Of a stretch of DNA of 64,000 nucleotides, positions 6,497 to 60,038 are shown piece after piece. Source of the DNA: Anaerolinea sp. (lineage in GTDB: Bacteria > Chloroflexota > Dehalococcoidia > Tepidiformales > Tepidiformaceae); assembly GCA_013822275.1 (NCBI GenBank), contig PNKC01000006.1, forward strand, positions 2,667 through 66,666, in the 5' to 3' direction. The notes beneath the pieces are model-generated. The model was not told the origin of the DNA. It searched no databases and saw only the letters and a program-made list of their open reading frames with translations. The translations under genes were made by a program, and so were the position numbers. Each line of letters begins with the position of its first letter. The stretch's first letter is position 1.

Positions 6497-6596
6497 AGGC
6501 TCAACCTAACGACGGCGCTGTGCTCGGTCAATGCCCCGGGGGCAGGCAGCAACGCGAGTGCCCGTTGCGGATTTGGGCCCGGGAAAGGAGCGCGGC

Positions 6597-8009: not shown

Positions 8010-8064
8010 CGTAGGCAGGGCGGGGCGTTTGGGTCAACGTCGGGGAGCCCCGATTGTCCCTTCC

Positions 8065-18147: not shown

Positions 18148-18156
18148 GCGAGAACC

Positions 18157-19407
18157 ATGCGGCGCCTCGCGCGGACTCTGTTTGGAAGCGAACACCGCAC
18201 CCTGACGCTGGTCGTCTTGGTGCTGCTCGCCTCTGTGTTCGTGGCGCTGGGCACCGGGTTCTGGCTGCTTTTCCGGCTCGCCTATGTGATCGGCTTCGGG
18301 TTGCCAATCTGCTGGGGGCTTGCCTGGTGGAACACCCGCCATGTGGAGGCCGTGGTTGATCGCCGGACCCTCCGCGGCCAGGTTGGCCAGGAAGCAGTCG
18401 AAGTGATCGAAGTCCGCAACCGGGATCTCTTCCCGAAGGTCTGGGTGGAAGTCGAAGACCCCAGCGACCTGCCGGGGCATCACTCGAAGCGCGTGGTGAT
18501 TATCCCGCCGCGGCGTACGCGCAACTGGCTGGTGACAACGAAACTCACGCGGCGCGGACTCTACGAATGGGGCCCGTTGCGGATCACCACCTCGGACCCG
18601 TTTGGCATCTTCCGGCGCTCGCGCGAACTCGGCGGCAGCGCCCAGATCCTTGTCTACCCGCCGGTTGTGGAATTGCCGCATTTCACGGCGCCGCCCGCCA
18701 ACCTGCCGGGCGAAGGCCGCTTCCGCCGGCGGACGCACTACGTGACGCCCAACGCCAGCGGCATCCGCCAGTACGCCCCGGGCGACGCCTTCAACCGCAT
18801 CCACTGGCGAAGCACAGCGCGCACCGGCGAGCTCATGGTCAAGACCTTCGAACTGGACCCGGCAAGCGACATCTGGGTAGTCGTGGACCTTGAACGGCGC
18901 GTGGCCGCGGGCAGCGGCGAGGAGAGCACAGAGGAGTACGCGGTCCGTGTGGCGGCCAGCATCGCCCGCCACTACCTCGTCAACAACCGGCCGGTGGGCA
19001 TGATCTCGTTCGGCAAGGATCTGCGGGTGCTGGAACCGGAACGCGGCGGGCAGCAGCTCACGCGCATCCTCGAAACGCTGGCCACGGCCTACGCCGTGGG
19101 CGACGCCCCGCTCGGCAACATCCTGACGGAGGAGCAGCGCCGTTTCGGCCGCCACACGACCCTGATCATCATCACCTCCGCCACGGACGACCACTGGCTC
19201 ACGGCGATCCAGGCCCTCACCCAGCGGGGGGTGCGCGCCGCCGCCGTGCTCGTTGACCCGAGCACCTTCGGCAGTGACCGCTCAGCCCTGCTGATGTACG
19301 GTCAACTGGCGGCGAGCGATATCCTCACGTATGTCATCAGCCGCGGCGATGACCTCGGGCTCGCCCTCAGCCCATCAGCGACAGGAGTCGGCGCATGGCA
19401 GGGATAA
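18157..19407 (+). CDS. DUF58 domain-containing protein
   Basis: Two N-terminal TM helices, then GIRQYAPGDAFNRIHWRSTARTGELMVKTFE (DUF58 signature). Positioned directly after moxR. Confidence 0.85.
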   Translation: MRRLARTLFGSEHRTLTLVVLVLLASVFVALGTGFWLLFRLAYVIGFGLPICWGLAWWNTRHVEAVVDRRTLRGQVGQEAVEVIEVRNRDLFPKVWVEVEDPSDLPGHHSKRVVIIPPRRTRNWLVTTKLTRRGLYEWGPLRITTSDPFGIFRRSRELGGSAQILVYPPVVELPHFTAPPANLPGEGRFRRRTHYVTPNASGIRQYAPGDAFNRIHWRSTARTGELMVKTFELDPASDIWVVVDLERRVAAGSGEESTEEYAVRVAASIARHYLVNNRPVGMISFGKDLRVLEPERGGQQLTRILETLATAYAVGDAPLGNILTEEQRRFGRHTTLIIITSATDDHWLTAIQALTQRGVRAAAVLVDPSTFGSDRSALLMYGQLAASDILTYVISRGDDLGLALSPSATGVGAWQG

Positions 19408-21692
19408 ACCTCCCGATGGAGCGTTCAGCAGGCCGCAGAGCCGGCTCGTTCGCCGTCTCCGCCCCTCGCGTGGTGATGTCCTGGGAGGATTGGCTCACGT
19501 TCGCGGTTGCTGCCGTGGCGTTCCTCGCCGTCGCCGTCTCGATCGACAGCGCCGACTGGGTGAAGCGGATGCCAAGCATTATCCCGACGGTGATGCTCGG
19601 GCTGCTCATCGGGCTGGTGTCCGCCCGCACAAAGCTCCCGGCCGTGATCGTCCACCCCCTGGGGATGGTCCTTGGCGCGGTCGTCGTGGCCCTCGTCGTC
19701 CAGCAGTACGCCGACGGGCTGACGCTTTCCGAGCGGATGGCGGATTTCCGCATCCGGATGAACGAGTGGTACAACGTCGTCCGCGCGGGCGACATCAGCA
19801 ACGACAACCTGCCGTTCATCACGCTCGTCAACACGCTCGGCTTCCTGAGCACGTACGTCGCCGCCTGGGCCATCTACCGCTGGCACAACGCATGGCTCGC
19901 GATCATGCCGGGGGGCATCGTCCTGCTGGCGAACATCAGCTTCCAGAAGGGCCAGCCGAGCGGCGCGTTCGTGGTCTTCCTTTTCGGCGCGGTGCTGCTC
20001 GCCGCGCGGCTCCACCTCCAGAAGAACCAGGCACACTGGAAGAAGGAGGGTGTGGAGTACCCCGAGTTCATCAGCGTGAGCTCCGTCCAGCTCACCTTCC
20101 TGGTCACCATCCTCCTCCTGGTTTTCGCCTGGATGGTCCCGCTGGGAAGCCAGGCGAAGGCGTTCGAGGGCACGGTTGACGCGGTTACCAGGCCGTTCGA
20201 AGGCCAGTCCGAAACGCTCGTCCGCCTCTTCCACAACATCGACTCCCGCAAAGGCGCCCCGCTCCATTCGTTCGGGGACACCCTCCCGATCCAGGGCGAG
20301 GTGAAGCTTGGCACGAAGGCTCTCTTCGAAGTAAAGAGCCCGGACGCCGGGCTCCTCCGGGCGACCAGTTACGACCAGTACACGGGCAACGGCTGGAAGG
20401 CCAGTGACCGCGACTCCACTCGCGTGGATGCGCGCGAACTGGCTGTTGACGAAGTCGCCGGGAACTACAAGGAGCGCACGATCTCCACCCTCAAGGTGAC
20501 GGTGTTGGATCGGGAGAGCACGCTCCTGACGCCGGGGATGCCGCTGCGCGCCAATATCGCGACCACGATCGAAACCCCGAAGGACTTCAGCAGCGACATC
20601 GAGCGGATGCGCAGCCGTCGCGGGCTGGAAAAGGGCGACACGTACAACAGCTTCGGCTCGATCAGCACGGCCAGCGCAGAGCAGCTGAACGGCGCCGGGA
20701 CGGCGTACCCCTCGTGGGTGACGGACCGCTACCTTCAACTGCCCAAATCACTTCCGCAGCGCGTTGGCGCTGAGAGCCTGAGGGTGGTGAACGAAAAGGG
20801 CGCAAGGACTCCCTACGAACGGACGCGCGCCATCGAGGAGTACCTCCGCACCTTCCCGTACGACCTGCTTGTGGTCTCCGCGCCGGCTGGCCGCGATACC
20901 GTCGACTTCTTCCTCTTCGACCTGAAGCGGGGCTACTTCGACTACCAGTCCACGACGATGGCCGTGATGCTGCGGACGCTGGGCATCCCTGCGCGGGTGG
21001 CCGTTGGCTACGCGATTGACGCTGGCGCGGGCGAAGAAACCAACTACACCATCCGGAAGGACGCCGCGTACTCGTGGGTGGAAGTGTACTTCCCGGAGTT
21101 CGGCTGGGTCACCTTTAACCCGACCCAGGACCGGCCGGAGGGTGGCGCCGGCGGCCTGGGGGCGACGATCGTGGACCCCATTGACCCGTTCGGCGAGGAC
21201 CCCAGCCTGACCGAACTCTTCCCCACTGAAGTCGTGGACCCCTTCGCCGACCCGGAACTTGCCGAGGCGCTCAACGAGACCGCGATCGCGAACTCGCAGC
21301 CGCCTTGGATCCTGTTGTACGCCCTGGCCGGCGTGCTGACCATGATGGCCGTCCTCTTCATCGCCGGGCGGATGACGTGGAACTGGGGCCTGGGCGGGCT
21401 CTCCGGGCGGGCACGCCTGTGGGCGAAGGCACACCGCCTCGCGAGCTGGGCCGGCATGGGCGGACGGGCAGCCGAAACACCGCGGGAGTGGTCCCGGCGA
21501 GTGGGCGGGGCCGTCGACCGGGCGGAGGAAGCGCAGCGGCTGGCGGAGGCGTACGAAGAGTCTCGCTATGGCCGTCCGGACCTGCAACGGATTGACGACG
21601 AATCCGCGGCTGGCTCGTATAGGCAGCTGCGCGGCGCGCTGCTCTCAGCGGTCCTGCGGCGGAAGCCGGCAAAGAAGAAGCCGAAGGCATAA
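19395..21692 (+). CDS. transglutaminase-like membrane protein (TgpA-like)
   Basis: Multi-TM N-terminus. Transglutaminase core GYFDYQSTTMAVMLRTLGIPARVAVGY...AYSWVEVYFPEFGWVTFNPT. 13-nt overlap with the DUF58 gene. Confidence 0.85.
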   Translation: MAGINLPMERSAGRRAGSFAVSAPRVVMSWEDWLTFAVAAVAFLAVAVSIDSADWVKRMPSIIPTVMLGLLIGLVSARTKLPAVIVHPLGMVLGAVVVALVVQQYADGLTLSERMADFRIRMNEWYNVVRAGDISNDNLPFITLVNTLGFLSTYVAAWAIYRWHNAWLAIMPGGIVLLANISFQKGQPSGAFVVFLFGAVLLAARLHLQKNQAHWKKEGVEYPEFISVSSVQLTFLVTILLLVFAWMVPLGSQAKAFEGTVDAVTRPFEGQSETLVRLFHNIDSRKGAPLHSFGDTLPIQGEVKLGTKALFEVKSPDAGLLRATSYDQYTGNGWKASDRDSTRVDARELAVDEVAGNYKERTISTLKVTVLDRESTLLTPGMPLRANIATTIETPKDFSSDIERMRSRRGLEKGDTYNSFGSISTASAEQLNGAGTAYPSWVTDRYLQLPKSLPQRVGAESLRVVNEKGARTPYERTRAIEEYLRTFPYDLLVVSAPAGRDTVDFFLFDLKRGYFDYQSTTMAVMLRTLGIPARVAVGYAIDAGAGEETNYTIRKDAAYSWVEVYFPEFGWVTFNPTQDRPEGGAGGLGATIVDPIDPFGEDPSLTELFPTEVVDPFADPELAEALNETAIANSQPPWILLYALAGVLTMMAVLFIAGRMTWNWGLGGLSGRARLWAKAHRLASWAGMGGRAAETPREWSRRVGGAVDRAEEAQRLAEAYEESRYGRPDLQRIDDESAAGSYRQLRGALLSAVLRRKPAKKKPKA

Positions 21693-46380: not shown

Positions 46381-47451
46381 TCAGCTCAGGCCCCGCAGCT
46401 TCGGGTCCGCCCCGCCGTCCGCGATTTCGAGCGCGGAGCGGATGAGCATCTCGGTGCGTTCGCCGTACCCTTCGAAGCCCTCGCCAACCGTTTCGCCCGC
46501 CAGGAAGCGCGCGTGGATGCCCTCGCAGATGACGGCCAGCTTGTAGGTCGCGAGCACCTGGTAGAACTCGATATTGCTCACGTCCCGGCCGCTGAGTTTG
46601 CCGTAGTAGCCCACAAGTTCCGCGCGCGTGAAGAACCCGGGTTCGCGCGTCACGTGCGTTGTCGCCGTGGCAGCGCCGTACGAGGCGTCGTCCCCCAACT
46701 GGCCCCAGTAGCAGAGGGTATAGCCAAGGTCCGAGAGCGGGTCGCCGAGGGTGCACATCTCCCAGTCCAGGATCGCGGAAACTTCCCCGGCGTTGGCGCG
46801 GTCCAGGATCATGTTCCCCAGCCGGTAGTCGCCGTGGACGATCGTCGGCAAGGGCGACTCGGGGATGGCCTCGCGCAGGCGGCGGATGAGCTCCCGGATT
46901 TCGGGCAAGGGGCGCGTTTCGCTGCGGTCCCACTGTTCGCTCCAGCGCCGCACCTGGCGTTCAAGGTAGCCATCCGGGCGGCCAAAATCCCCGAGGCCGA
47001 CGGCGTTGTAGTCCACGGCGTGCAGCTTCACGAGCGTCTCGATGAGCCCGCGACTGATCGCCTGGCGCTCCTCGAAGGTTTGGGCGAAGCCCGCCGGGAT
47101 TTCGTCGGCGATAATCACGCCGTCCACGAAGTCCATCACGTAAAACGGGGCGCCATTCACCGCGTTGTCTTCGCAGAGCGCGACCGTGCGCGGCACGGGG
47201 ACGCCGGTGCCCCAGAGGGCGGTGATAACGCGGTACTCGCGCGCCATGTCGTGGGCGGTTGGGAGGACATGGCCGAGAGGCGGGCGCCGGAGTACCCAGG
47301 CCCTCTCCCCCGCGGCAACCCTGTAGGTAAGGTTCGACCTCCCGCCACTGATGAGCGTCACGGTCAGGGGGACGTCGCCGCCTGGCACGTGCGTGGCGAA
47401 GTAACGGGAGACGCCGTCGAGGTCGATCCCGGCGGGTGCAGTGTGGTTCAT
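46381..47451 (-). CDS. phosphotransferase (APH-like kinase) family protein
   Basis: IVHGDYRLGNMILD catalytic loop and ILDWEMCTLGDPLSDLG motif. Confidence 0.75.
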   Translation of the reverse strand: MNHTAPAGIDLDGVSRYFATHVPGGDVPLTVTLISGGRSNLTYRVAAGERAWVLRRPPLGHVLPTAHDMAREYRVITALWGTGVPVPRTVALCEDNAVNGAPFYVMDFVDGVIIADEIPAGFAQTFEERQAISRGLIETLVKLHAVDYNAVGLGDFGRPDGYLERQVRRWSEQWDRSETRPLPEIRELIRRLREAIPESPLPTIVHGDYRLGNMILDRANAGEVSAILDWEMCTLGDPLSDLGYTLCYWGQLGDDASYGAATATTHVTREPGFFTRAELVGYYGKLSGRDVSNIEFYQVLATYKLAVICEGIHARFLAGETVGEGFEGYGERTEMLIRSALEIADGGADPKLRGLS

Positions 47452-47598: not shown

Positions 47599-48690
47599 TT
47601 GAACGGTTTAACAGATTTACGATTGTGCGGGTGGCAGGCGGCCAACATGGCTCGCGATGAGTGGGACAGGGCCCGCGCCGCGGCGGAAGCGCACGGCCAT
47701 CCACGGATGCAGGTCTCGAGTTGCCAACGGATCGAGGTCTACCACTTCGGCGAATGCGCCTGCAACGCGACGATGAGCGCGAAGGGCACGGCTGCCCTCA
47801 GTCACCTCGCCGAAGTTGCCGCCGGGCTCCACTCGGTGGTCCTTGGGGAGCGGGAGATCCTGGGCCAGGTGAGGGCGGGGGCGGCGGACGCCGAGGGCGA
47901 ACTCGAACGGCTGGCCCGTGTTGCGATCGCGGCGGCGCGAGACCTGCGCGAGGAAGCTTCGCTGGAGGCGAATACCGGCCACCTTCTGGACCGTGCCCTG
48001 CGCCACCTGGGCCGGGAAGCCGCGGGCACCATCGCCGTCGTGGGCGCGGGCGCCACGGCCCGCGCGGTCGCCGCACGTGCCCACGCCATCGGGTTCGAGA
48101 AGGTCGTCGTCGCATCTCGCACGGCCCCGGATGCGCCCTGGTTCGATGAGTGCCAGGCCGTCCACGTCCCGCTGCCGGAAATGGCCAGCGTTACCGCCGG
48201 TGTGGTCGTGACCTGTCTCGGCTCGGAGGCGGCGCCGCTCAGCGCGCGAATGCTCCCCTCGGCTGGGATGCTGATCGACCTGGGCATACCGCCAAATACG
48301 GTGGGCGATTTCACGGTGCCGGTTGTGACGATGGCTACCCTCTGGAACTCGGAGTTCGGCCGCCCGCACTCCGATTCGCGCCGGGCGGAACTGGGCGAGA
48401 AGCTCGGCCACCGGCTCGAACACCGGCTGCGGATGCTCCGCGAGGATGGCTCCTCACCGGTGGGCTCCGTACGTCGAGCGGTGGAGCGCATCCGGCAGCA
48501 AGAGATCGAGCGCTCGCGGCGCCTTCACCCGGACATCCCGGCCGCGGCGCTGGAGACGATCACGCGGTCGCTGGTGAACCAGATCTTCCATCTCCCCTCC
48601 CAGCGCTTGCGGAGCGAAGCGGACCCCTCGTTCGCCCGCGAATTCGCCGCGCTGTTCACGCCAACCGAAATCACGGAGCATGCCCAATGA
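47599..48690 (+). CDS. hemA: glutamyl-tRNA reductase (compact form)
   Basis: Active-site Cys in SSCQRIEVY, NADPH-binding IAVVGAGATARAV, and C-terminal ...ITRSLVNQIFHLPSQRL. Start uncertain (TTG 47599 or ATG 47647). Confidence 0.8.
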   Translation: MNGLTDLRLCGWQAANMARDEWDRARAAAEAHGHPRMQVSSCQRIEVYHFGECACNATMSAKGTAALSHLAEVAAGLHSVVLGEREILGQVRAGAADAEGELERLARVAIAAARDLREEASLEANTGHLLDRALRHLGREAAGTIAVVGAGATARAVAARAHAIGFEKVVVASRTAPDAPWFDECQAVHVPLPEMASVTAGVVVTCLGSEAAPLSARMLPSAGMLIDLGIPPNTVGDFTVPVVTMATLWNSEFGRPHSDSRRAELGEKLGHRLEHRLRMLREDGSSPVGSVRRAVERIRQQEIERSRRLHPDIPAAALETITRSLVNQIFHLPSQRLRSEADPSFAREFAALFTPTEITEHAQ

Positions 48691-49826
48691 CCATGCTGAC
48701 GGGGCCCACTGAACTTGAAGACGAGACGAACCGGCGGATCCTCCACATATCCGAAGACCGGATAGCGGGGTTCGAACGCGACCCGTTCGGCCGCATTGCC
48801 GAGGAGTCGGGCGTCGCGCTCGACACGGTCCTCGAACGCATCCGCGCGATGCTCGAGGCGGGCGTCATCCGGCGGGTGCGACAGACGCTGATGGCCACCA
48901 ACCTGGCGCCGGGGGCGCTGGCGGCCTGGCAGGTGTCCCAGGACAACCTCCACCAGGCGTTCGACGACCTCTTCCAGAACGACCCGTTCTCCGGCCATGT
49001 CGTCATCCGCACGACGGACGCGGAGACGCCGGGCTCGGCCTACCGCCTCTGGACGACGCTCAAGGTGCCGCAGGGCTTCTCCATCGAGAAGCACGCCACC
49101 TATCTCGCGGAACGGATCGGCGCGAAAGAATACCGGCTGATGCCCGCCAGGTGCCTCTTCGTGCTCGGTGTTGGCCACATGCGCCGCCGCGCGATTGGAC
49201 CTGGCTCAAAGTCCGAGGCGCTGGCTAATGCGACGAACACTACTGTCGTCGAACTCAGCGAGATTGAGTGGCGGGTGCTTGAGGCCGTGAAGCGCGAACT
49301 GGCGCCGGCCGAAGTCGCGCGCGACCTGTGGGCGCTCCGCGCCGAGGAAGCCGGAATTGCGCTGGAAGAGTTCTACCAGGTTGCCGAGGGGCTGAACGCC
49401 CGCGGCGTCGTGGGGCGGTTCTCCACGTTCCTGGAGCACGTGAAGGAGTTGAGCACGGGCGAACGCGTGACCCGCTACAACGCCCTCTTCCACTGGGCCG
49501 TCCCGCCTGGGCGCGAACTTGAGGCAGGCCGCGAAGTTGGCCGCCACCACATCCTCACCCATGCCTACTGGCGTGAAGGCGGGCCGGAGTTCGCCAACGT
49601 CAACATCATGGCTGTCGCCCACGGGATGGAAAAACCGGCCGTCCTCGCCCACAAGGCGGCGATCGACGAGCACCTCGCGGCCTGCGGCATTCCGGTCTCC
49701 TACACAAACGTGTTCTGGGGCGGACGCAGCGAGATCAAGCCATCCGAAGTTTCGCCGTTCGCCTACGAACGCTGGTGCCGCGACACCGGCATTAACCCAG
49801 AGAGCATGCGCGCGGAGGTGCGTTGA
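48687..49826 (+). CDS. fused AhbA/AhbB (NirD/L/G/H)-like siroheme decarboxylase family protein
   Basis: Two tandem Lrp/AsnC-like modules. The first is [48 protein letters not shown]...LWTTL. The second is EWRVLEAV...[11 protein letters not shown]...[10 protein letters not shown]...THAYWRE. ATGA overlap with hemA. Confidence 0.6.
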
Positions 49827-50827
49827 TGGAGTACCGCAAGATCCATGGCACGCCGCTTACCGTCTCCGCGGTCGGTTTCGGCGTCTGGACCGTCGGCACC
49901 ACGTGGTGGGGAGTCAGAGACCGCCAAACCGGCATCCGCCTGCTCCGCCAGGCGTTTGACCTGGGTGTCACCTTCTTCGACACCGCTGACACCTACGCCA
50001 GCGGCGACGCCGAGACCATCCTCCAGGAGGCCCTCGGCGACGTTCGCGACCAGATCGTGATCGGGACGAAGTTCGGCTACGACATCTACAACCACCCGGA
50101 CCGGCCGGGCCAGCAGGAACGCCCGCACGACTGGTCGCCCAAGCACATGCGCCACGCTCTTGAGCAGTCGCTCCGGAGGCTTGGCACCGGCCACATCGAC
50201 CTCTACCAACTCCACAACCCGCGCCTGGACGCGATCCAGCGAGACGACCTCTGGGAGGAGCTGGAGCGTGCGAAGGATGAGGGCCTCATCCGCGCCCTCG
50301 GGACCGCGATGGGCCCGGCCTTCGACCTGCGCCAGGTCGCGGAGGGCGTCGACTCGATTGAGCGCCGGGCGGCGCCGCCGCAGATCATCTACAACCTTCT
50401 CGAACAGGAGATCGGCGCGGGGATCTTCCCCACGGCGCGAGCGCATGGCGTTTCGGTGCTCGTCCGCGTGCCGCACGCCTCCGGGCTGCTTGATGGAAGC
50501 GTCAGGAAGGACACGGTCTTCGAACCCGGCGACCACCGCAACTGGCGCGTGACGACGAACGAACGCCGCCGGGCCTTCATGGAGGACGGCCTCGCCAGGG
50601 TCGAGCGCCTGCGGTTCATCGAAGACGGCCGGACAATCGGTCAGGCCGCCATCCAGTTCATCCTCCACGAACCGTCTGTCGCCTCTGTCCTGCCGAACAT
50701 CTACGACGCGGAGGGCCTGAAAGAGTTCGCGACCTTCGATTCCGCCCGCCCGCTGAGCGACGACGACTATGCAACGGTGCAGCGGCTGCACGCCGAGAAC
50801 TTCGGACTCCAGCCGGCCGCGATCTGA
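49826..50827 (+). CDS. aldo/keto reductase
   Basis: GFGVWTVG..., [23 protein letters not shown] and [13 protein letters not shown] motifs. TGATG 1-nt overlap with the upstream gene. Confidence 0.85.
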
Positions 50828-50834
50828 GGGAAAC

Positions 50835-51623
50835 ATGTCTCACCACCCCGAACCCGCAGCCCCCGCCGGCCCGCCACCTCGCCGCGGTCCGATGGTTGAC
50901 CTGGACCCCAGCGGCCAGGTCACCGGCAAAGAGCCGGACCGCGCCACGCGCCAGTTCCTCCGCTACGCCTTCTACAGGGTGGACCCCGGCTTCCGCCGCC
51001 TGCCCGTGCCCCAACGGGTCGCTGCACGGGACGAATTCCGGGAGCTATTGGAAGCCAGGCTCGCTGCGGACTACCCGATCCTGCGCACCTACTCGCTCGT
51101 TGGCCTGCGTGGCGACTGCGATTTCATGCTCTGGAGCATCGCGAACAATCCCCTCTGCTTCCAGGAGTTGCAGGCGGCAATCAACCGCACGGCGCTGGGC
51201 GCCTACCTGGAGGTCGCCCACAGCTTCGTTTCCATGCAGAAGCGGAGCCAATACGTGAACCGGATTGAAGGCTCAGGCAACGGCGTGGAGCTGCTGCCGG
51301 GCGAAGGCAAGTACCTCTTCATCTACCCGTTCGTGAAGACGCGGCCCTGGTACGCGCTCAGTCCTCATGCTCGCCAGGGGATGATGGATGAGCACATCGC
51401 CGCCGCCTCGCCGTTCAAGGGCGTGCGCATCAACACCAGCTACAGCTACGGCATCGACGACCAGGAGTTCGTGGTCTCGTTCGATTCGGACTACCCCCAG
51501 GAGTTCGTGGACCTCGTCGGCCGCCTCCGCTACACGCAAGCGAGCCTCTACACCCAGCGCGACACGCCCATGTTCACCTGCGCGAAAGTCACCCCCGGCG
51601 GCCTGCTGGAACAGATCGGTTGA
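50835..51623 (+). CDS. chdC: coproheme decarboxylase (HemQ/ChdC, chlorite-dismutase family)
   Basis: KYLFIYPFVKTRPWYALSPHARQGMMDEHIAAASPF...EFVVSFDSDYPQEFVDLVGRLRYTQASLYT resembles actinobacterial-type HemQ. Pro-rich N-terminal extension. Confidence 0.75.
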   Translation: MSHHPEPAAPAGPPPRRGPMVDLDPSGQVTGKEPDRATRQFLRYAFYRVDPGFRRLPVPQRVAARDEFRELLEARLAADYPILRTYSLVGLRGDCDFMLWSIANNPLCFQELQAAINRTALGAYLEVAHSFVSMQKRSQYVNRIEGSGNGVELLPGEGKYLFIYPFVKTRPWYALSPHARQGMMDEHIAAASPFKGVRINTSYSYGIDDQEFVVSFDSDYPQEFVDLVGRLRYTQASLYTQRDTPMFTCAKVTPGGLLEQIG

Positions 51624-51662
51624 ACATCCACGCTCCCGGCGCGCAACAATGGAACGCGCGAA

Positions 51663-53150
51663 ATGAATGAGGGACATGTCTGGATCGTTGGTGCAGGCCC
51701 TGGAGACCCCGGGCTGCTGACCGTGGCCGGGGCGGCGGCCCTGGCGCGGGCCGAAGTCGTCCTGTACGACGCGCTCTCGTCGCCGGCTCTGTTGCGTGGC
51801 GTCCCGGCGGAGGCCGAGCTCGTCTACGTTGGCAAACGCGCCGGCCAGCACGCGATGAAGCAGGAGGAGATGAACACCCTTCTGGTGGCCCACGCGCGGC
51901 GGGGCAGGCGCGTCGTGCGGCTCAAGGGGGGCGACCCCTTCGTCTTCGGGCGCGGCAGCGAAGAAGCGCTCGCCTGCCGCGCGGCGGGTGTGCCGTTCAC
52001 CATTGTGCCCGGCATCAGTTCGGCAATCGCGGCCCCCGCATATGCGGGCATCCCGGTGACGCACCGGGGGCTGGCGGCGAACTTCATGGTTATCACCGGC
52101 AACGACGCCGGGACGGAGAATTCCGGGACCGACTGGGCTGTCGCCGCCCGCGCGGACGCGCTCGTGATCCTCATGGGGGTGTCCACCCTCGCCCAGGACA
52201 TGGAACTGCTGCGTGGTGCCGGGAAGCCGGCCGAAACGCCCGTCGCCTGCATTCGCTGGGGCACGCGGCCCGACCAGCGGGTCCTCCGCGGGACAATCGG
52301 GACGATCGCCGGACTGGCCGCTGAGGCCGGGCTCGAATCCCCCGTCGTCACGGTCGTGGGGGCCGTGGCCGCCCTGGCTGGCGACCTTGCCTGGTTCGAA
52401 CCCGGCCCCCTGGCGGGGAAATCCATCGTGGTCACTCGCGCCCGTACGCAGAGCAGCGACCTCGCGGCGCGGTTCGAAGCCCTCGGCGCGTACGTGGTGC
52501 AAGCGCCCGCGATTCGCGTCCGCCTGCTCCCCGGGAACATCACCAACGATGAGCGCGTCTCCTCGCGCTGGGACTGGATCGTGTTCGCCAGCCAGAACGG
52601 CGTGGAGTCGTTCTTCGCGGCCCTGCGACAGGGTAGGCGAGACGCCCGTACTCTCGGTACGACGCAGGTCGCGGCCATCGGCGAAGCAACGACCGCAGCG
52701 CTCCTTGCCAACGGGATCGTCCCGGACTTCCAGCCGTCACGCGCCACGTCGGCGGTGCTGGCCGCAGAACTGCCTCGCGTTTCGGGCGCGCGCATCTTTC
52801 TGCCCTCCAGCAGCCTGGCGGACGACCAGCTTGCCCAGGCGCTGCGCAAGCGAGGTGGGCACGTGGAGCAGGTCGCGGCCTACGAAACGCTTCCCGAACC
52901 GCTTGACGACGAACGGCTCCGGCAGGTGCTGAGCGCCGACGCCATCACCTTCACCAGCGCCTCCACCGCCAGGAACCTGCGGGCGGCCCTGGGGGAAGCA
53001 CAAGTCCCTGCCTCCACGAAGCTCGTGTCCATCGGTGAGCAGACGAGTGATGCCGTGCGTGAGTGCTTCGGGCGCCTCGATGCGCAAGCGGACGAGGCAT
53101 CGCTCGACGCCCTGGTCGCCGCAACGCGGGAGGCCCTGCCATGGGGATGA
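51663..53150 (+). CDS. cobA: bifunctional uroporphyrinogen-III C-methyltransferase / uroporphyrinogen-III synthase
   Basis: N-terminal SUMT (VWIVGAGPGDPGLLT...VVRLKGGDPFVFGRG). The C-terminal about 240 aa are HemD-like (KSIVVTRA...WIVFASQNGV...ITFTSAST). Confidence 0.85.
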   Translation: MNEGHVWIVGAGPGDPGLLTVAGAAALARAEVVLYDALSSPALLRGVPAEAELVYVGKRAGQHAMKQEEMNTLLVAHARRGRRVVRLKGGDPFVFGRGSEEALACRAAGVPFTIVPGISSAIAAPAYAGIPVTHRGLAANFMVITGNDAGTENSGTDWAVAARADALVILMGVSTLAQDMELLRGAGKPAETPVACIRWGTRPDQRVLRGTIGTIAGLAAEAGLESPVVTVVGAVAALAGDLAWFEPGPLAGKSIVVTRARTQSSDLAARFEALGAYVVQAPAIRVRLLPGNITNDERVSSRWDWIVFASQNGVESFFAALRQGRRDARTLGTTQVAAIGEATTAALLANGIVPDFQPSRATSAVLAAELPRVSGARIFLPSSSLADDQLAQALRKRGGHVEQVAAYETLPEPLDDERLRQVLSADAITFTSASTARNLRAALGEAQVPASTKLVSIGEQTSDAVRECFGRLDAQADEASLDALVAATREALPWG

Positions 53151-53671
53151 TGATCGACCTCCGCCCCGATGCCGGCCCAGCGCTCATCGTCGGCGGCGGC
53201 GCCGTGGCGACGCGCAAGGCCAGGGGCCTGGCCGAGGCTGAGTTCCGGATGACGGTCATCGCGCCTGTTATCGACGAAGCCATCCGCGCCCTGCCCTGGG
53301 TGACGGTGATCGAACGTGTCTTCGAGGCGAGCGACCTGCCCTGGGACACGGGCTACTCGCTCGTGTTCGCCTGCACGAGTTCTCGCGCCGTCAACAAGGA
53401 AGTGGGCCGGCTAGCGCGGGCGGCGCGCATCCCCGTCGTCGTGGCCGATTCCCAGCCTGAGAGCACATTCTTCACCCCGGCGGTCATCCGCGACGGCGAC
53501 CTCGCCATCGCGGTTTCCACCGGCGGCGCCTCGCCCACGCTGGCCCGCTCCATCCGCGAACAGATCGTGGCGGCCCTCGGACCCGGCTGGGGCAAGGTCG
53601 TTGGGCTCGCCCGCTCGGAACGGCTGACGCGGCAAGCCGCGAAGGCCCCACGACGAAAGGACGGCGCGTGA
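53141..53671 (+). CDS. precorrin-2 dehydrogenase / sirohydrochlorin ferrochelatase family (SirC/CysG N-terminal-like)
   Basis: ALIVGGGAVATRKARGL Rossmann motif and ...DLAIAVSTGGASPTLARSIRE. 10-nt overlap with the upstream gene. Confidence 0.8.
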   Translation: MGMMIDLRPDAGPALIVGGGAVATRKARGLAEAEFRMTVIAPVIDEAIRALPWVTVIERVFEASDLPWDTGYSLVFACTSSRAVNKEVGRLARAARIPVVVADSQPESTFFTPAVIRDGDLAIAVSTGGASPTLARSIREQIVAALGPGWGKVVGLARSERLTRQAAKAPRRKDGA

Positions 53672-54390
53672 GCCGGGCGCTGCTCCTCGCGGGCCACGGG
53701 TCCCATCTGAACGCGGATTCGAGCGCTCCCGTGTACGCGCACGCGGCGCGCCTCCGCGAACGCGGGATGTTCGATGAGGTACGGATAGCCTTCTGGAAGG
53801 AGGAGCCTTCGTTGTCCCGCGCGCTGGATGGCTGCGATGCAGACGAGATCACGGTCGTGCCCGTTTTCATGTCCGCCGGCTACTTCACCAACGAAGTCAT
53901 CCCGCGCGAGATGGGGCTCAACGGCCGGAAGTGCTGCATCCGCGGCAAGACCGTGCGCTACACGGCGCCGGTTGGCGGCCACCCGTCGCTCGCCAGGGTG
54001 GTTGTCCAGCGGGCGCTGGAGGCCGGAGCCACCGGGGACGAAGCGCTGGCCGTCCTTGGACATGGGACGGAGCGCCACCGCCAGTCCGAGGCCAACGTCT
54101 ACCAGCAATCGGAGTTCGTCCGCGCGCTTGGCGCGTTTCCCGAGGTTTTGACCGTCTTCCTCGACCAGCAGCCGGGGATGATGGACGTGTTCGACCTCAC
54201 GGCCAGGGCGGAGGTGGTCGTTGTGCCGCTGTTCATCGCCGATGGCTGGCACGCGGGTGAGACCATCCCCGAGGGCCTTGGTGATTTGCGCGAGGATGGC
54301 CGCCGCCTGCACTACGCCGGGGCCGTTGGCACCCACCCCAGCGTCGCGGATGTCATCCTGGAACTCGCCGCCGAGGCCGCCGCATGGTGA
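53668..54390 (+). CDS. CbiX/SirB-type sirohydrochlorin chelatase (two CbiX repeats)
   Basis: LLAGHGSH... and LAVLGHGTE... repeats, each followed by VVP(V/L)F(M/I). GTGA overlap with sirC. Confidence 0.8.
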   Translation: MSRALLLAGHGSHLNADSSAPVYAHAARLRERGMFDEVRIAFWKEEPSLSRALDGCDADEITVVPVFMSAGYFTNEVIPREMGLNGRKCCIRGKTVRYTAPVGGHPSLARVVVQRALEAGATGDEALAVLGHGTERHRQSEANVYQQSEFVRALGAFPEVLTVFLDQQPGMMDVFDLTARAEVVVVPLFIADGWHAGETIPEGLGDLREDGRRLHYAGAVGTHPSVADVILELAAEAAAW

Positions 54391-55040
54391 AACGCGAGCC
54401 GTACGCCTTCGGCCAACTCCGCATCGAGTTCGACGTTCAGACGCCCGTTGTCCACGGCCCGGCAGCAACAGGCGAGGAACGGCGGATCGAAGCCCGTGAA
54501 GACGCGCTGCGCGAATGGGTGCGTGATGACGCACTGGGGCGGTACCGGCCGCTGCCAACGGCGAGGACGATGCGGCCTGGCTGGTACGTGCGTTGCGAAC
54601 CTGGCTTTTCGCTCGACGACGCCCTGGAAGTGATCTACCCGCTCGCCGTGCGCCACCAGCGGATGCTCGCGGAAGGGACGCTTCGGCTCGTGTCTCTGCA
54701 AAGAGTGTTTGACCGCCAGTCGGGGCGCTATCGCGCGGCTGGGAAACTCTCCGCGGCTGGCCGCGAAGCTGCCCGGCGGGTGCTCTGCAACCGCTGCGTG
54801 AAGGTGCCGCTCTGGGATGGCGAGACGGCCGGGTCGAAGGACATCCCCTGCCCCGAACCGTGCAGCCTGATGCTCTCACTCTGCCGCGAAGCCGCGCTCT
54901 GGGAGGAGGCGCCGCCCGCTCCCGCTCCCATCGACCCCTCTGTCGCCTGGGCCGCGTTCGATGAACCTGGCAACGAAATCCGCGAAACGTACCTGCGGGA
55001 ACGGTCCGCACCAGCCAATGAAGTAGGCTTGCTCCGATGA
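54384..55040 (+). CDS. DR2241-like protein with Cys cluster (putative 4Fe-4S domain)
   Basis: 218 aa. CNRCVKVPLW...PCPEPCSLMLSLC cysteine pattern. Family assignment is from memory of CbiX-DR2241 fusion proteins. Overlaps the cbiX stop and the hemL start. Confidence 0.45.
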   Translation: MVKREPYAFGQLRIEFDVQTPVVHGPAATGEERRIEAREDALREWVRDDALGRYRPLPTARTMRPGWYVRCEPGFSLDDALEVIYPLAVRHQRMLAEGTLRLVSLQRVFDRQSGRYRAAGKLSAAGREAARRVLCNRCVKVPLWDGETAGSKDIPCPEPCSLMLSLCREAALWEEAPPAPAPIDPSVAWAAFDEPGNEIRETYLRERSAPANEVGLLR

Positions 55041-56311
55041 CTAACGCCGCCACCCGCGATGCCGCCCGCCAGCTCTTCCCGGGCGGGGTGAACAGCCCCG
55101 TCCGCTCGTTCCGCTCGGTTGGCGGGGGTGCAATCCCCATCGTCCGAGGCGAAGGCGCGCTCATTTTCGATACGGAAGGCAACCGCTACATCGATTACAT
55201 CGCGGCGTTCGGCCCGCTGATCCTCGGCCACGCCCCCGCGCCCGTTGTCGAAGCCGTGCGCAAGGCGGCGGGCGAAGGCACCGCCTTCGGCGCGCTCACG
55301 CCCGGCGAAGTGGAGCTGGGGCGGCGCGTCACGGAGGCGACCGGGCTCGAACGCATCCGCTTCGTCAACTCCGGCACGGAAGCAACGATGACCGCCATCC
55401 GGCTCGCGCGGGCGGCCACGGGGCGCGACATCATCGTGAAGTTCGACGGCTGCTACCACGGCCACAGCGACGGCCTCCTCGTGAAGGCCGGCAGCGGCGT
55501 CGCGACCATGGGCCTGAGCGATTCAGCGGGCGTCCCCGAGCAGATCGCCGGTCTCACGGCCGTCCTCCCCTACAGCGACGCGCCGGCGCTCGAAGCGTGG
55601 TTCAGGGAGCACGGCGAGCAGACGGCCGCCGTCATCGTGGAATCGATCGCGGGCAACATGGGCCTCGTGCCACCGGCGCAGCCGTTCCTTGATGCGCTTC
55701 AGTCAGCGCCGGCGAAATACGGGGCCCTGCTCATCGCGGACGAAGTGATCACCGGCTTCCGGATGCGCTACGGCCTCTCGGACCTGCTACCCGGCGCGGA
55801 CCTCGTCTGCCTCGGCAAGATCATCGGCGGCGGGCTGCCCGTCGGGGCGTTTGGCGGCTCCGCGAAGCTAATGTCGCTGATCGCGCCGGAAGGGCCGGTC
55901 TACCAGGCCGGGACGCTCAGCGGCAACCCGCTGGTGATGGCGGCGGGCGTGGCGATGCTCGATACACTCGCTGACGGCGCGCCATACAAGCGCGCGGACG
56001 AACTGGCGCGGCACCTCGAAAACGGGCTGAACGCTGCCATCAAGCGCGCCGAGGTGACCGCCAGCGTAGTCCGCATGGGCTCCATGCTCACGCTCTTCTT
56101 CCGGCGGGCCGTCCCCACGGATTACGCCGAAGCGCGCGAATCCGATACCGGCCTCTTCGCGCGCTACCATTCGGCCATGCTCGCGCGCGGGATAATGCTG
56201 CCGCCCTCACAGTTCGAAACGCTCTTCGTCTCGGCGGCGCACAACGAAGCCGCGATCGACGAGACGGTGAAGGCGGCGCACGAGTCGCTGCGGGAGATTG
56301 CGGCATCGTGA
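55037..56311 (+). CDS. hemL: glutamate-1-semialdehyde 2,1-aminomutase
   Basis: FPGGVNSPVRSF...YIDYI..FGPLILGH...LIADEVITGFR...LGKIIGGGLPVGAFGG. Confidence 0.93.
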   Translation: MTNAATRDAARQLFPGGVNSPVRSFRSVGGGAIPIVRGEGALIFDTEGNRYIDYIAAFGPLILGHAPAPVVEAVRKAAGEGTAFGALTPGEVELGRRVTEATGLERIRFVNSGTEATMTAIRLARAATGRDIIVKFDGCYHGHSDGLLVKAGSGVATMGLSDSAGVPEQIAGLTAVLPYSDAPALEAWFREHGEQTAAVIVESIAGNMGLVPPAQPFLDALQSAPAKYGALLIADEVITGFRMRYGLSDLLPGADLVCLGKIIGGGLPVGAFGGSAKLMSLIAPEGPVYQAGTLSGNPLVMAAGVAMLDTLADGAPYKRADELARHLENGLNAAIKRAEVTASVVRMGSMLTLFFRRAVPTDYAEARESDTGLFARYHSAMLARGIMLPPSQFETLFVSAAHNEAAIDETVKAAHESLREIAAS

Positions 56312-57201
56312 CCACGATCCGCATCGGCACGCGCGGCAGCCGCCTGGCACTGGCGCAGACCGGGCTCGTGGCGGACCTGCTACGGAAGACCCACCCCGGT
56401 GCGGAGATCGAACTCGTCGAGATCGTTACCGCCGGCGACCGCGACCAGACATCCGCGCTCAGCTCGGGGGAAGGCATCGGCTGGTTCACTTCGGCCCTCC
56501 AGGTCGCGCTCCAACAGGGAGAGGTGGACATCGCCGTCCACAGCTACAAGGACCTGCCCACGAAGCGTCCCGAGGGGCTGGTTATCGCCGCCGTCCCGCT
56601 GCGCGAAGATCCGCGCGATGCGCTTGTCAGCCGCGACGGCCGCTCGGACTTCCGCGCGCTCCCGCCTGGCGCCCGGGTGGGCACGAGCAGCGCGCGCCGC
56701 ACGGCCCAGCTCGCCGCCATCCGGCCGGACATCGAGATTGTCGCCATCCGCGGGAACGTGGACACCCGCCTGGTAAAGGTTGACGCGGGCGACTACGACG
56801 CGGCTGTCCTCGCTCTCGCCGGGCTGAAGCGGCTGGGCCTCGATGGCCGCGCGACGCACGTCTTCGGCTTCGAAGAACTGGTGCCCGCCCCGGCCCAGGG
56901 TGTCCTCGCGATTGAATGCCGGGCAGGCGATGGGCCGGTGAGGGATCTGCTGGGCGCAATCGATGACCCGATCCTGCGCCAGACCGTGACCGCCGAACGG
57001 AGCTTCCTGGCAACGCTGGGGGCGGGCTGCAGCTTCCCCGCCGGCGCCTATGCGGAGCACTTCGGCTCCACGCTCAAACTGCACGGGCTCATTGCCCGCG
57101 ACGGCAAGATCGTGCGCTCAAAGATGGCCGGAGCGGCGGAAACCGCTGCCGGGCTGGGCTCGACGTTGGCGCGGGAATTGATGGCCCTCGCGGGCATGTA
57201 G
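56308..57201 (+). CDS. hemC: hydroxymethylbilane synthase (porphobilinogen deaminase)
   Basis: IRIGTRGSRLALAQT...HSYKDLPT...RGNVDTRL...ERSFLATLGAGCSFP. Confidence 0.93.
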   Translation: MTTIRIGTRGSRLALAQTGLVADLLRKTHPGAEIELVEIVTAGDRDQTSALSSGEGIGWFTSALQVALQQGEVDIAVHSYKDLPTKRPEGLVIAAVPLREDPRDALVSRDGRSDFRALPPGARVGTSSARRTAQLAAIRPDIEIVAIRGNVDTRLVKVDAGDYDAAVLALAGLKRLGLDGRATHVFGFEELVPAPAQGVLAIECRAGDGPVRDLLGAIDDPILRQTVTAERSFLATLGAGCSFPAGAYAEHFGSTLKLHGLIARDGKIVRSKMAGAAETAAGLGSTLARELMALAGM

Positions 57202-57440: not shown

Positions 57441-58847
57441 TCATCCTGGCGGCCGGTTGCGACCTCTGGCCGCGCTCGCCTGCTCCGCCATCAGCGCCTT
57501 CATCCGCGGTTCGCTGCGAATGGCATCGACCACCATCGCGACGAAGAGGAGCAACCCCAGCCACCCCAGCGCGCCAGCCAGGGCTGAAGTCTGCATTCGC
57601 GGCTCAATGTCCCATGCCTCGGCCAGCAACCCCGTCGTGACGCGCAGCGCGGCGGCAGTCAACAGGCACCACCAGGCGCCCCGCTCCACGAGTGAAGGCC
57701 CCACCGCCTCGACGCGGCGGAGGGCGAAGAACGGCGCCACCAACTGAGCCATCCCGATGATGAGGAGCGTAATCAGCCCCGCCCCGTAGGCGTGGCGAGC
57801 TGCGTCCCGCGCGGGGACAGCGTTGTCGCCATCGAAAAACAGCATGCGTACGCCCGCCCAAACGAGGAGAGCGCCCGCGATCATGGCAAAGACGTTGGCC
57901 GCCAGAACGAACCTGGAAGCGCGGCGGGCCCGCGGACGCAGCCGCCTGGCCCTTCCCCAGACGGAACCGGCGATCGGGGGCAGCCAGATGAGAGCGGCCC
58001 CGCTCAGGAGGAAGCCGGCGCCCATCACGGCCTCACGCTGGTCAACATCATCCAGCCAGGGCGAAACGAGGACGGCGGCGGCGCCCGCGTTCAGCAGCAC
58101 GCCCGGCACTACGGCGCGGCGGAGTGAGGGCGTCTTGCGCCCGAAGAACACGGGCACGGCGCGGCTCTGCACTCCCCAGATGAAGTTGCCTATTGCGGCA
58201 AGCATGACGGTCCAGGCGGTTGCGTCGTCATCCAGCGAGGGCACGTAGGCGCCGTTGGCAGAGGCGTCCATGCCCTGGGCGACCAGGAGCGCCGCCCAAA
58301 CAGCCCACCAAACGCCGCCCGCCATGCAGAACCAGCGCCACGGCTCATTCGTCTTCCGGCCGGTGAGGAGGGCATAGAGGACGAGGCCGGAAAACGAAGC
58401 AGCCCCGGCCCCCGCGAGGACACCGGAGACGGCCATCAGGCGTTCGGAGAGGCCACCCATGTCCACGGCCTGGGCGGCCACGCGCGTTACCGCGCCGCCA
58501 AAGAGCAGCGCGAAGACAGGGAGAACGCGTGTCCGGCGGAACGGCTGGCGCGCCGCGAACCGGGGCAGCAGGCGAAGGCCCATGCCGGCCACGAAGAGCC
58601 CCGCCCAACCCTGCACCTGGGCCCAACCGTGTGCCTGGATCAGCCACGGCACCCGCTCCTCCCAGCCGAACGCGCCCGATTGCGCCAGCGAAAGCAGGAT
58701 GGCGAGCACCAGCCCGGCGCCAACCGCCATCACCATCGCGCCCATGATGAAGACCACGTAGGAGCGGTCTTCCACCGCCGGGACAACTTCGGCCGACTGC
58801 ACCAGAGGCATCTCGAGGGGGATGTCGCCGCGCCGGCCGTTCGCCAT
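57441..58847 (-). CDS. NnrS-like multi-pass membrane protein
   Basis: ORF trimmed to the ATG at 58847. About 12 TM helices. WLIQAHGWAQVQGWAGLFVAGMGLRLLPRF resembles the NnrS His-containing helix pattern. Confidence 0.45.
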   Translation of the reverse strand: MANGRRGDIPLEMPLVQSAEVVPAVEDRSYVVFIMGAMVMAVGAGLVLAILLSLAQSGAFGWEERVPWLIQAHGWAQVQGWAGLFVAGMGLRLLPRFAARQPFRRTRVLPVFALLFGGAVTRVAAQAVDMGGLSERLMAVSGVLAGAGAASFSGLVLYALLTGRKTNEPWRWFCMAGGVWWAVWAALLVAQGMDASANGAYVPSLDDDATAWTVMLAAIGNFIWGVQSRAVPVFFGRKTPSLRRAVVPGVLLNAGAAAVLVSPWLDDVDQREAVMGAGFLLSGAALIWLPPIAGSVWGRARRLRPRARRASRFVLAANVFAMIAGALLVWAGVRMLFFDGDNAVPARDAARHAYGAGLITLLIIGMAQLVAPFFALRRVEAVGPSLVERGAWWCLLTAAALRVTTGLLAEAWDIEPRMQTSALAGALGWLGLLLFVAMVVDAIRSEPRMKALMAEQASAARGRNRPPG

Positions 58848-59285: not shown

Positions 59286-59354
59286 CTATCAAGTCAATAG
59301 TCTTAGAGCTATCTTTGAAGAAATCTTTACATACGAGCAATCGGAGCAGCCCTC

Positions 59355-60038
59355 ATGGCCCATCGGACCGCTGAGACGGACGGAGCGCGCAAGACCTACA
59401 ACCACCCCTGCACAATCGCCCAGACGCTGGACGTCCTCGGCGACAGGTGGACGCTCCTCATCCTCCGGGACCTGATGGCTGGCCTGCACCGCTACAACGA
59501 CATCCTCGAAAGCTGCGCCGGCATGTCTCCCAACGTCCTTTCGGACCGCCTCAAGCGCCTCGAAGCCGATGGGCTCGTCAACCGTAACTACTTCAAGGAA
59601 CTGCCACCGCGGGTGGAATACACCCTCACCGAAAAGGGCTGGTCCGTACGCCCTATCCTTCTCGAACTCCTTGAGTGGGGCCGCAAACACACTCCGGGAT
59701 TCAGCGAAGACAAAGTAGGCCGGGAGATCTCCACAGACTTTGCAGTCAGGGTGGTCCCGGCCTTTTCCTTTCATCCCGAACGGGCGGACGGCCTCAACGT
59801 GAGCATGTCGGTGGAGATCGCCGAAAGCGAACACTGCACCGCCTGGACGCTCGCCATCCACGACGGCCACATCCACCCCCAACGGAGCCGGGCCGCCAGC
59901 ACGGACGTCCACCTGCGCACAACCACACACGGGTTCTTCCAGTTCATCCGCGGCGAAGCCCGCGCCGAGATGGTGGGCGAACTGACTGGCTCGCCGGAAG
60001 CGGCAGCCCGCATCCAGGCCTGCTTCCTCAGCGACTGA
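59355..60038 (+). CDS. HxlR-family transcriptional regulator with C-terminal SCP2-like extension
   Basis: CTIAQTLDVLGDRWTLLILRDL...RYNDI......SPNVLSDRLKRLEADGLV.R......PPRVEYTLTEKG HxlR signature, plus about 110 extra C-terminal residues. Confidence 0.8.
   Translation: MAHRTAETDGARKTYNHPCTIAQTLDVLGDRWTLLILRDLMAGLHRYNDILESCAGMSPNVLSDRLKRLEADGLVNRNYFKELPPRVEYTLTEKGWSVRPILLELLEWGRKHTPGFSEDKVGREISTDFAVRVVPAFSFHPERADGLNVSMSVEIAESEHCTAWTLAIHDGHIHPQRSRAASTDVHLRTTTHGFFQFIRGEARAEMVGELTGSPEAAARIQACFLSD

Follow-up and report, generated by a model that had tools for sequence, protein, structure and literature searches.

A Chloroflexota tetrapyrrole operon that joins siroheme synthesis to a predicted coproheme decarboxylase

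We analysed a 64 kb stretch of contig PNKC01000006.1 (hereafter the window), which comes from a metagenome-assembled genome (MAG) of a Tepidiformaceae-like member of the Chloroflexota. At 47599-57201 on the + strand, the window holds an operon of ten genes for tetrapyrrole synthesis, in which the genes for making siroheme stand together with chdC (hemQ), the gene for a predicted coproheme decarboxylase. A preliminary description, made from the DNA alone, had named the same ten genes; we found the ten open reading frames (ORFs) at the same coordinates, and Pfam and NCBIfam searches of the translated ORFs of the window agreed with the proposed identities (Table 1). We believe, with moderate confidence, that this is the main tetrapyrrole operon of the MAG and that it serves the siroheme-dependent (Ahb) pathway to heme, with ChdC available for the last step as an alternative to an AhbD-like radical-SAM protein. 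What we observed in this regard are the identities of the genes, their coupling, their conservation in relatives, and the occurrence of canonical Ahb genes either in this genome or in its nearest relative.

Table 1. The ten genes of the tetrapyrrole operon, with the domain and family matches of their products.
Gene or product	Coordinates	Strand	Matches
hemA, short divergent glutamyl-tRNA reductase, 363 aa	47599..48690	+	Pfam GlutR_N, Shikimate_DH, GlutR_dimer
Divergent fused AhbA/AhbB-like (NirDL-like) protein, 379 aa	48687..49826	+	Pfam two AsnC_trans_reg2 and NirDL-like HTH
Aldo/keto reductase (AKR), AKR11-like	49826..50827	+	Pfam Aldo_ket_red, 157 bits
chdC (hemQ), predicted coproheme decarboxylase	50835..51623	+	Pfam Chlor_dismutase, 184 bits
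cobA-hemD fusion (uroporphyrinogen-III C-methyltransferase and uroporphyrinogen-III synthase)	51663..53150	+	Pfam TP_methylase, HEM4; NCBIfam PRK06136, 296 bits (over cut-off)
sirC-like precorrin-2 dehydrogenase	53141..53671	+	Pfam NAD_binding_7, Sirohm_synth_M; NCBIfam cysG_Nterm, 101 bits (cut-off 62)
Two-domain CbiX-type class II chelatase, presumed sirohydrochlorin ferrochelatase (SirB)	53668..54390	+	Pfam CbiX, two stretches; NCBIfam PRK02395.1-3, 246 bits
DR2241 C-terminal-like Fe-S protein	54384..55040	+	Pfam DR2241 stabilising domain and Fer4_23
hemL, glutamate-1-semialdehyde 2,1-aminomutase	55037..56311	+	NCBIfam PRK00062, 547 bits; TIGR00713, 527 bits
hemC, hydroxymethylbilane synthase	56308..57201	+	NCBIfam TIGR00212, 318 bits (cut-off 164)

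The genes are tightly coupled, and a direct reading of the junctions matched what had been described. From hemA to chdC, these are ATGA at 48687, TGATG at 49824-49828, and a 7-nt gap (GGGAAAC) before the ATG of chdC at 50835. A single 39-nt gap precedes cobA-hemD at 51663 and is followed by a 10-nt overlap at 53141; the remaining junctions are GTGA at 53668, ATGGTGA at 54384, ATGA at 55037, and GTGA at 56308. The G+C content around the operon is 64-70%. A scan of the operon for promoters and terminators was uninformative (no promoters, and three weak terminators versus 5.2 expected).

The set for siroheme synthesis is complete in the operon: cobA-hemD, sirC, and cbiX account for uroporphyrinogen-III C-methyltransferase (SUMT), precorrin-2 dehydrogenase, and sirohydrochlorin ferrochelatase. 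The glutamyl-tRNA reductase (GluTR) encoded by hemA is unusual, scoring just 76-84 bits with NCBIfam models whose cut-offs are 209-429, and its catalytic cysteine lies in the motif SCQR instead of the canonical TCNR. The DR2241-like protein covers positions 334-475 of the 486-position fusion model PRK02395.1-4 (NCBIfam), and its gene comes after cbiX in relatives as well, so by sequence it represents the C-terminal part of a fusion of the CbiX-DR2241 type, split off as a gene of its own. In Deinococcus radiodurans, DR2241 consists of a CbiX domain, a stabilising domain, and a 4Fe-4S domain; the seventh and eighth genes of the operon reproduce this series but, unlike in D. radiodurans, it is split into two overlapping genes. 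Because it matches part of a known fusion architecture, we set aside the DR2241-like protein as a substitute for the didecarboxysiroheme deacetylase AhbC.

The closest solved homologue of the operon's ChdC is that of Corynebacterium diphtheriae (6XUB; E = 1e-27, about one-third identity). The tyrosine in YPFV aligns to the catalytic Tyr135 (mutated in the Y135A structure), and the histidine in DEH aligns to the presumed proximal histidine. Scores against the NCBIfam models fall below their cut-offs (HemQ_actino, 124 bits vs. 235; PRK12276, 65 bits vs. 253), and ChdC seems to form a separate clade that is nearest to the actinobacterial enzymes. Unlike actinobacterial chdC, the gene has no hemE, hemY, or hemH nearby; its neighbours are siroheme genes.

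The gene just before chdC encodes an aldo/keto reductase (AKR) whose best solved relative is YhdN of B. subtilis (1PZ1, E = 2e-31). In the alignment to YhdN, the catalytic tetrad Asp-Tyr-Lys-His is intact (D in DTAD, Y in TY, K in GTK, and H in LHNP). The AKR would therefore appear to be a catalytically intact NAD(P)H oxidoreductase, and we infer from the gene pairing described below that it works with ChdC. In the literature that we searched, we found no paper that links an AKR to ChdC, and nothing specific on a bacterial Ahb/ChdC hybrid or on heme synthesis in Tepidiforma.

We compared the operon to 170 related loci (1.8 Mb in all), which are given here by L numbers. The window's own fused AhbA/B-like protein and ChdC are 100% identical to MBA4179587.1 and MBA4179589.1, which are labelled "Anaerolinea sp." The nearest relative is the assembly ERZ24842533 Tepidiformaceae_PNKC01, where the operon (L004, on NODE_115) has the identical order of ten genes, with 76-93% identity. 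More broadly, the same genes occur together in at least 14 related loci, arranged in at least five different orders, which implies that the cluster did not arise by chance. In more distant Chloroflexota, the genes are shuffled while the set is kept. Two adjacencies persist throughout. hemA is directly upstream of the AhbA/B-like gene in all 10 loci for which that flank is available, and the AKR gene is directly upstream of chdC in all 14 operon-type loci (the AKR being 64-92% identical). The best-conserved members of the operon are the AhbA/B-like protein, AKR, ChdC, and HemL (61-93% identity), while hemA, cbiX, and the DR2241-like gene drop to 29-50% identity in the more distant loci. In every permutation of gene order, chdC sits among the siroheme genes.

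We also asked which genes of the coproporphyrin-dependent (CPD) pathway are in the vicinity. As previously described, the window has no HemB, UroD (HemE), CgoX, ferrochelatase, or radical-SAM protein outside the operon, according to Pfam searches with about 60 additional ORFs that cover its remainder; and tblastn of HemE, HemH, and HemB from E. coli against the window gave no match. No tetrapyrrole gene was seen in the window beyond the ten of the operon. Across the 170 loci, no homologue of UroD or of ferrochelatase (HemE/HemH) was found near the ChdC clade or near the AhbA/B-like family (CgoX was not searched for there). The earlier suggestion that siroheme synthesis and ChdC in one operon point to a route from siroheme through coproheme to heme, rather than to the classical coproporphyrin route, agrees with these results.

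In an ordinary CPD pathway, UroD, CgoX, and CpfC from elsewhere in the genome would feed ChdC, and the siroheme genes would serve only sulfite or nitrite reductases and an anaerobic Ahb route. We consider this improbable. It gains from the location of hemB outside of the operon, which shows that essential pathway genes can lie elsewhere, and from the affinity of ChdC to actinobacterial CPD enzymes. The part of a 2024 review that we draw on (PMC10991733, citing Kim et al. 2021) bears on both sides: it describes mixtures of enzymes from the siroheme-dependent, CPD, and protoporphyrin-dependent (PPD) pathways in Chloroflexota, with enzymes of all three in some members, and it reports no Chloroflexota species that is complete on the CPD pathway alone. 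The other points against this alternative are the lack of UroD and ferrochelatase homologues in the loci that we compared and the embedding of chdC among siroheme genes in every permutation.

The preliminary description had seen no AhbC in the window and had also inferred that acetate removal could be carried out by something else, possibly an unexplained member of the operon. This inference is not supported, in view of a protein from the same lineage and of a canonical cluster in relatives. In L169, a canonical three-gene Ahb cluster lies directly upstream of the operon. Its fused AhbA-AhbB scores 220 and 231 bits with the NCBIfam models, over the cut-offs, and its AhbC is a radical-SAM/SPASM protein with TIGR04546 as its best match (498 bits). 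A protein search with this AhbC as the query matched MBA4180146.1, "12,18-didecarboxysiroheme deacetylase [Anaerolinea sp.]," which has the same organism label as the window proteins MBA4179587.1 and MBA4179589.1 and is 559 accession numbers away from them. MBA4180146.1 is 94% identical to its orthologue in ERZ24842533, the assembly of the nearest relative. That orthologue is in locus L170 (NODE_860, coverage 12.97), and the contig with the operon in the same assembly, NODE_115, has a coverage of 12.92. L170 carries the canonical cluster of fused ahbAB, an ahbD-like radical-SAM gene, and ahbC, and its AhbAB scores 209 and 211 bits, again over the cut-offs. The AhbD-like radical-SAM/SPASM proteins of the relatives score 428-467 bits with TIGR04053 (467 bits in L169), over the cut-off; their second match is to AhbD, at 340-356 bits with a cut-off of 500.

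Thus, the lineage carries a complete canonical Ahb tail, with an AhbD-like protein as its last member, on a separate contig, and the window's own MAG almost certainly does too. Because AhbC is found in the lineage and almost certainly in the MAG, the proposed route from siroheme to heme without AhbC is not supported.

In the pathway that we favour, the operon would provide most of the C5 trunk: GluTR, glutamate-1-semialdehyde aminomutase (GSAM), hydroxymethylbilane synthase (HmbS), and uroporphyrinogen-III synthase (UroS), together with HemB from elsewhere, would convert Glu-tRNA via 5-aminolevulinate (ALA) to uroporphyrinogen III. SUMT, SirC, and the CbiX-type chelatase with its Fe-S partner would then lead through precorrin-2 and sirohydrochlorin to siroheme. 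AhbAB, encoded elsewhere in the genome, would convert siroheme to 12,18-didecarboxysiroheme, and AhbC, also encoded elsewhere, would convert this to coproheme. The final step from coproheme to heme b would be catalysed by ChdC, in a peroxide-dependent reaction under oxic conditions, or by the AhbD-like enzyme under anoxic conditions. We infer the direction of flux and this division of labour between oxic and anoxic conditions from the genes.

A similar arrangement is known from Haloferax, which lacks uroD, cgoX, and cpfC and has ahbAB, ahbC, and ahbD as well as chdC, with AhbD acting anaerobically and ChdC aerobically (PMC5746218; PMC8305020). As in Haloferax volcanii, where ChdC is known as PitA, our system would have a route through siroheme that ends in either of two terminal enzymes, a radical-SAM protein of the AhbD type or ChdC, and it has two fused two-domain paralogues of the AhbA/B type; no uroD or cpfC was seen in the window or in the related loci, and no cgoX in the window. 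Unlike in Haloferax, the host is a bacterium, chdC lies inside an operon of siroheme and C5 genes, where it is coupled to an AKR gene, ChdC carries no fused ABM domain, and one of the AhbAB-type proteins belongs to a divergent family that spans phyla. The Ahb pathway of Desulfovibrio and Methanosarcina is also similar, in that the genome or the nearest relative has AhbAB over the cut-offs, a protein with AhbC as its best match, and an AhbD-like radical-SAM/SPASM protein. In contrast to that pathway, the Ahb genes here are in a cluster apart from the operon, ChdC comes in addition from the operon, and the host belongs to an aerobic-type lineage rather than to the sulfate reducers or methanogens. 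In our reading, this is the Ahb-plus-ChdC arrangement, already known from haloarchaea, in a bacterial form that carries two uncharacterised and strongly conserved accessory genes.

Several points weigh against the Ahb-plus-ChdC pathway as we have drawn it. First, MBA4180146.1 is almost certainly from the window's own MAG, but this is judged from its label, the proximity of the accessions, and the matching divergence, not from an assembly record. Second, this AhbC candidate has TIGR04546 as its top and full-length match, with 501 bits, while the strict cut-off is 650. Third, ChdC has a glutamate at the position of the distal His118 of the C. diphtheriae enzyme, in which it differs from actinobacterial ChdC. 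Fourth, a hemE-cgoX-cpfC set (and hemB) could lie in the remainder of the genome and feed ChdC. Finally, if the canonical AhbAB suffices, then this pathway offers no reason for a second and far more conserved AhbA/B-like gene or for the coupling of the AKR gene to chdC.

This second gene of the operon had been described as AhbA/B-like. Its domains and fold agree with this, but its scores are under the cut-offs of the NCBIfam equivalog models (AhbB, 73.4 bits vs. 125; AhbA, 49 bits vs. 140). With the same models, the canonical fused AhbAB proteins of the relatives score 211-231 bits (AhbB) and 209-220 bits (AhbA), and the operon's protein shares just 27-30% identity with the canonical AhbAB proteins of L169 and L170. 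Because canonical ahbAB is present, we regard the operon's gene as an additional, divergent paralogue that does not encode the sole siroheme decarboxylase; this coexistence and its fixed place after hemA argue that its product is not simply "the" siroheme decarboxylase.

The paralogue aligns over its full length to NirDL of Hydrogenobacter thermophilus (4CH7, E = 9e-13). An AlphaFold2 (AF2) model of the paralogue (pLDDT 83) matches the same structure with Foldseek (TM-score 0.76, E = 7.5e-19), and both Pfam and the model indicate two Lrp/AsnC-like modules, each with a helix-turn-helix (HTH) and a ligand-binding domain, as in the pseudo-heterodimer of siroheme decarboxylases of the NirDL type. 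The AhbA/AhbB family is defined by an HXYXR motif in each subunit (Palmer 2014, PMC4145669). In the C-terminal half of the paralogue, this motif is H292-A-Y294-W-R296 (THAYWR), and in the N-terminal half it is H104-V-V-I-R108 (GHVVIR), where the histidine and the arginine are kept and the tyrosine is replaced by valine; both are invariant in the alignment of the family. Other invariant motifs (LGVGHx[24 protein letters not shown]) are located in part in loops that the model predicts with low confidence, and the variable columns of the alignment fall in the presumed recognition helix. Overall, the paralogue resembles NirDL (4CH7/4CZC) in its fused two-module fold and in the histidine and arginine of HXYXR, and it differs in its low identity (about 20%), in the change from tyrosine to valine in the N-terminal half, in the extra invariant motifs, and in lacking a nir or heme d1 context. 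We rejected a role in heme d1 synthesis, as suggested by the resemblance to NirDL, because there was no context of nirS, nirF, nirJ, or nirN in any locus.

The paralogue is widespread. More than 400 GTDB species representatives carry it at 65-71% identity to the query, in the Verrucomicrobiota, Gemmatimonadota, Acidobacteriota, Eremiobacterota, Planctomycetota, Chloroflexota, and Methylomirabilota. When clustered at 50% identity, the family is essentially a single cluster with a few outliers (34-46%). Outside of the Chloroflexota, the gene mostly stands alone. In a Gemmatimonadales MAG (L072:2770-7135), it is directly followed by cobA-hemD, hemC, and hemB, and judging from this gene order, L072 independently ties the family to the synthesis of tetrapyrroles in a different phylum. 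On a Planctomycetaceae contig, an AKR homologue is 0.5 kb upstream of the paralogue. The paralogue most likely binds an iron tetrapyrrole in a NirDL-type cleft, and it would either be an additional decarboxylase or serve GluTR as a linked carrier or feedback sensor.

An alternative that concerns this gene only is that the paralogue is not an enzyme at all and is instead a heme- or siroheme-sensing regulator of the Lrp/AsnC type or a feedback or carrier protein bound to GluTR. We think that this is possible, though on the unlikely side. The adjacency to hemA in all 10 loci, with an ATGA overlap in the operon, would fit such a role, as would the Lrp/AsnC-factor fold with its retained HTH modules and the coexistence with canonical AhbAB; and some AhbA/B complexes bind heme, with a DNA-binding role left open (PMC4145669). 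Yet 65-70% identity over at least seven phyla, in essentially one cluster, is unusual for a transcription factor. Furthermore, the catalytic histidine and arginine are kept in both halves, and it is the presumed recognition helix that varies, while the invariant residues are those of the HXYXR-type motifs and others in the pocket.

A more radical alternative is an updated form of the preliminary idea. The paralogue, the AKR, and ChdC might together convert siroheme to heme without AhbC, as an aerobic module without radical-SAM enzymes and an oxygen-tolerant counterpart of the canonical set. These three proteins parallel the canonical AhbAB, AhbC, and AhbD-like proteins of L169 and L170 one to one, and, with HemL, they are the most conserved proteins of the operon, at 61-92% identity versus 29-77% for hemA, cbiX, and the DR2241-like gene in the more distant loci. 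A second AhbA/B-like gene would otherwise be redundant. The intact tetrad of the AKR fits as well, and no paper that would already account for the AKR beside ChdC turned up in our search. Nevertheless, we consider this very improbable: AhbC is almost certainly in the genome, so nothing needs to be replaced; aerobic haloarchaea use the radical-SAM AhbC together with ChdC; AKRs transfer hydride to a carbonyl group, and didecarboxysiroheme offers no obvious substrate for such chemistry; and outside of the Chloroflexota, the genes for the paralogue and for this ChdC clade are not neighbours, nor does the AKR gene lie beside chdC. The broader form of the idea, in which an oxygen-compatible and radical-SAM-independent route from siroheme to heme runs parallel to the canonical set and has a core (the paralogue and the ChdC clade) that is widespread in aerobic soil phyla, seems to us a long shot; those phyla would be the ones listed above for the paralogue, apart from the Methylomirabilota. 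If such a route were real, it would be a fourth way of making heme.

We also considered whether a conserved neighbour could be a missing enzyme. Clustering the neighbouring genes of 84 loci with the paralogue and 80 loci with ChdC yielded no universal partner. The lineage-specific neighbours were unrelated genes for efflux, a substrate-binding protein (SBP), a kinase, and aldehyde dehydrogenase.

The siroheme-dependent route to heme is usually ascribed to archaea and to sulfate reducers. If the Ahb-plus-ChdC reading is correct, then this route, with a ChdC terminal step, is also present in Chloroflexota of an aerobic type. The Chloroflexota are among the phyla with frequent gaps in the heme pathway (Kim preprint), and the reading may explain why some of them are called incomplete in heme synthesis or are predicted to be auxotrophs. 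The comparison also singles out an uncharacterised AhbAB-like family, which in the Chloroflexota lineage studied always follows hemA, and the invariant gene pair of AKR and chdC, both within a pathway that a 2026 review regards as essentially complete.

Outside of the Chloroflexota, the ChdC clade is found on at least 581 metagenome contigs, at 65-74% identity. A highly conserved gene for a FAD_binding_3 monooxygenase-like protein (407 aa) lies about 100 nt downstream of chdC in L090 (L090:10001-20309) and in about 20 other loci, including L094, L096, L107, L109, L118, L146, and L151, with 68-87% identity to the copy in L090. It is followed by genes for alternative complex III (NrfD/ActD) and cytochrome c oxidase. 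The FAD_binding_3 protein could be another partner of ChdC, for instance in supplying the oxidant. Also outside of the Chloroflexota, AhbD-like radical-SAM/SPASM genes are about 9-10 kb from chdC in three loci (L100:12500-13675, L126:14756-15859, and L117:19270-20004), and they are 32-35% identical to the Tepidiformaceae protein. This suggests that oxic and anoxic terminal enzymes are paired elsewhere too.

Among the loci with the paralogue, several from GTDB MAGs (L013, L014, L039, L049, L035, and L059) have record titles that name Klebsiella or Akkermansia muciniphila. With 65-67% identity to the query, these copies match it as closely as do the copies from Verrucomicrobiota and other MAGs, and the titles look like those of mislabelled bins. 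Small genes of the GRDB family (glycine reductase B-like) lie 7-9 kb from the paralogue or from the AKR-chdC pair in L001:838-1521, L002:393-1067, and L165:2603-3103; this recurrence in Acidobacteriota and Chloroflexota may be coincidental.

On the downstream side of the operon, a gene for a membrane protein (57441-58847, - strand) is convergent with hemC. It is kept beside the operon in L004, with 78% identity, and it has a weak full-length match to NnrS, a family of heme- and copper-containing membrane proteins (E = 9.5e-5, 22 bits, cut-off 28). A membrane protein of about 500 aa that adjoins the paralogue in Acidobacteria proved to be unrelated to it. Beyond the membrane protein in the window is a gene for an HxlR-type regulator (59319-60038). 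On the other side, a gene for an APH-family phosphotransferase (46381-47451, - strand) is divergent from the operon, as also in L004, L165, and L166, and it is divergent whether hemA or the AKR gene comes first in the operon, with which it may have a control region in common. Farther away, the window has two PIN-domain genes at its start (642-1112, + strand, and 1346-1777, - strand), both of which are probably toxin-antitoxin modules; two tandem paralogues of the LytR_cpsA_psr family (5075-8033, - strand); and a cluster of genes for a MoxR-type AAA ATPase, a DUF58 protein, and a transglutaminase-like protein (17197-21692, + strand).

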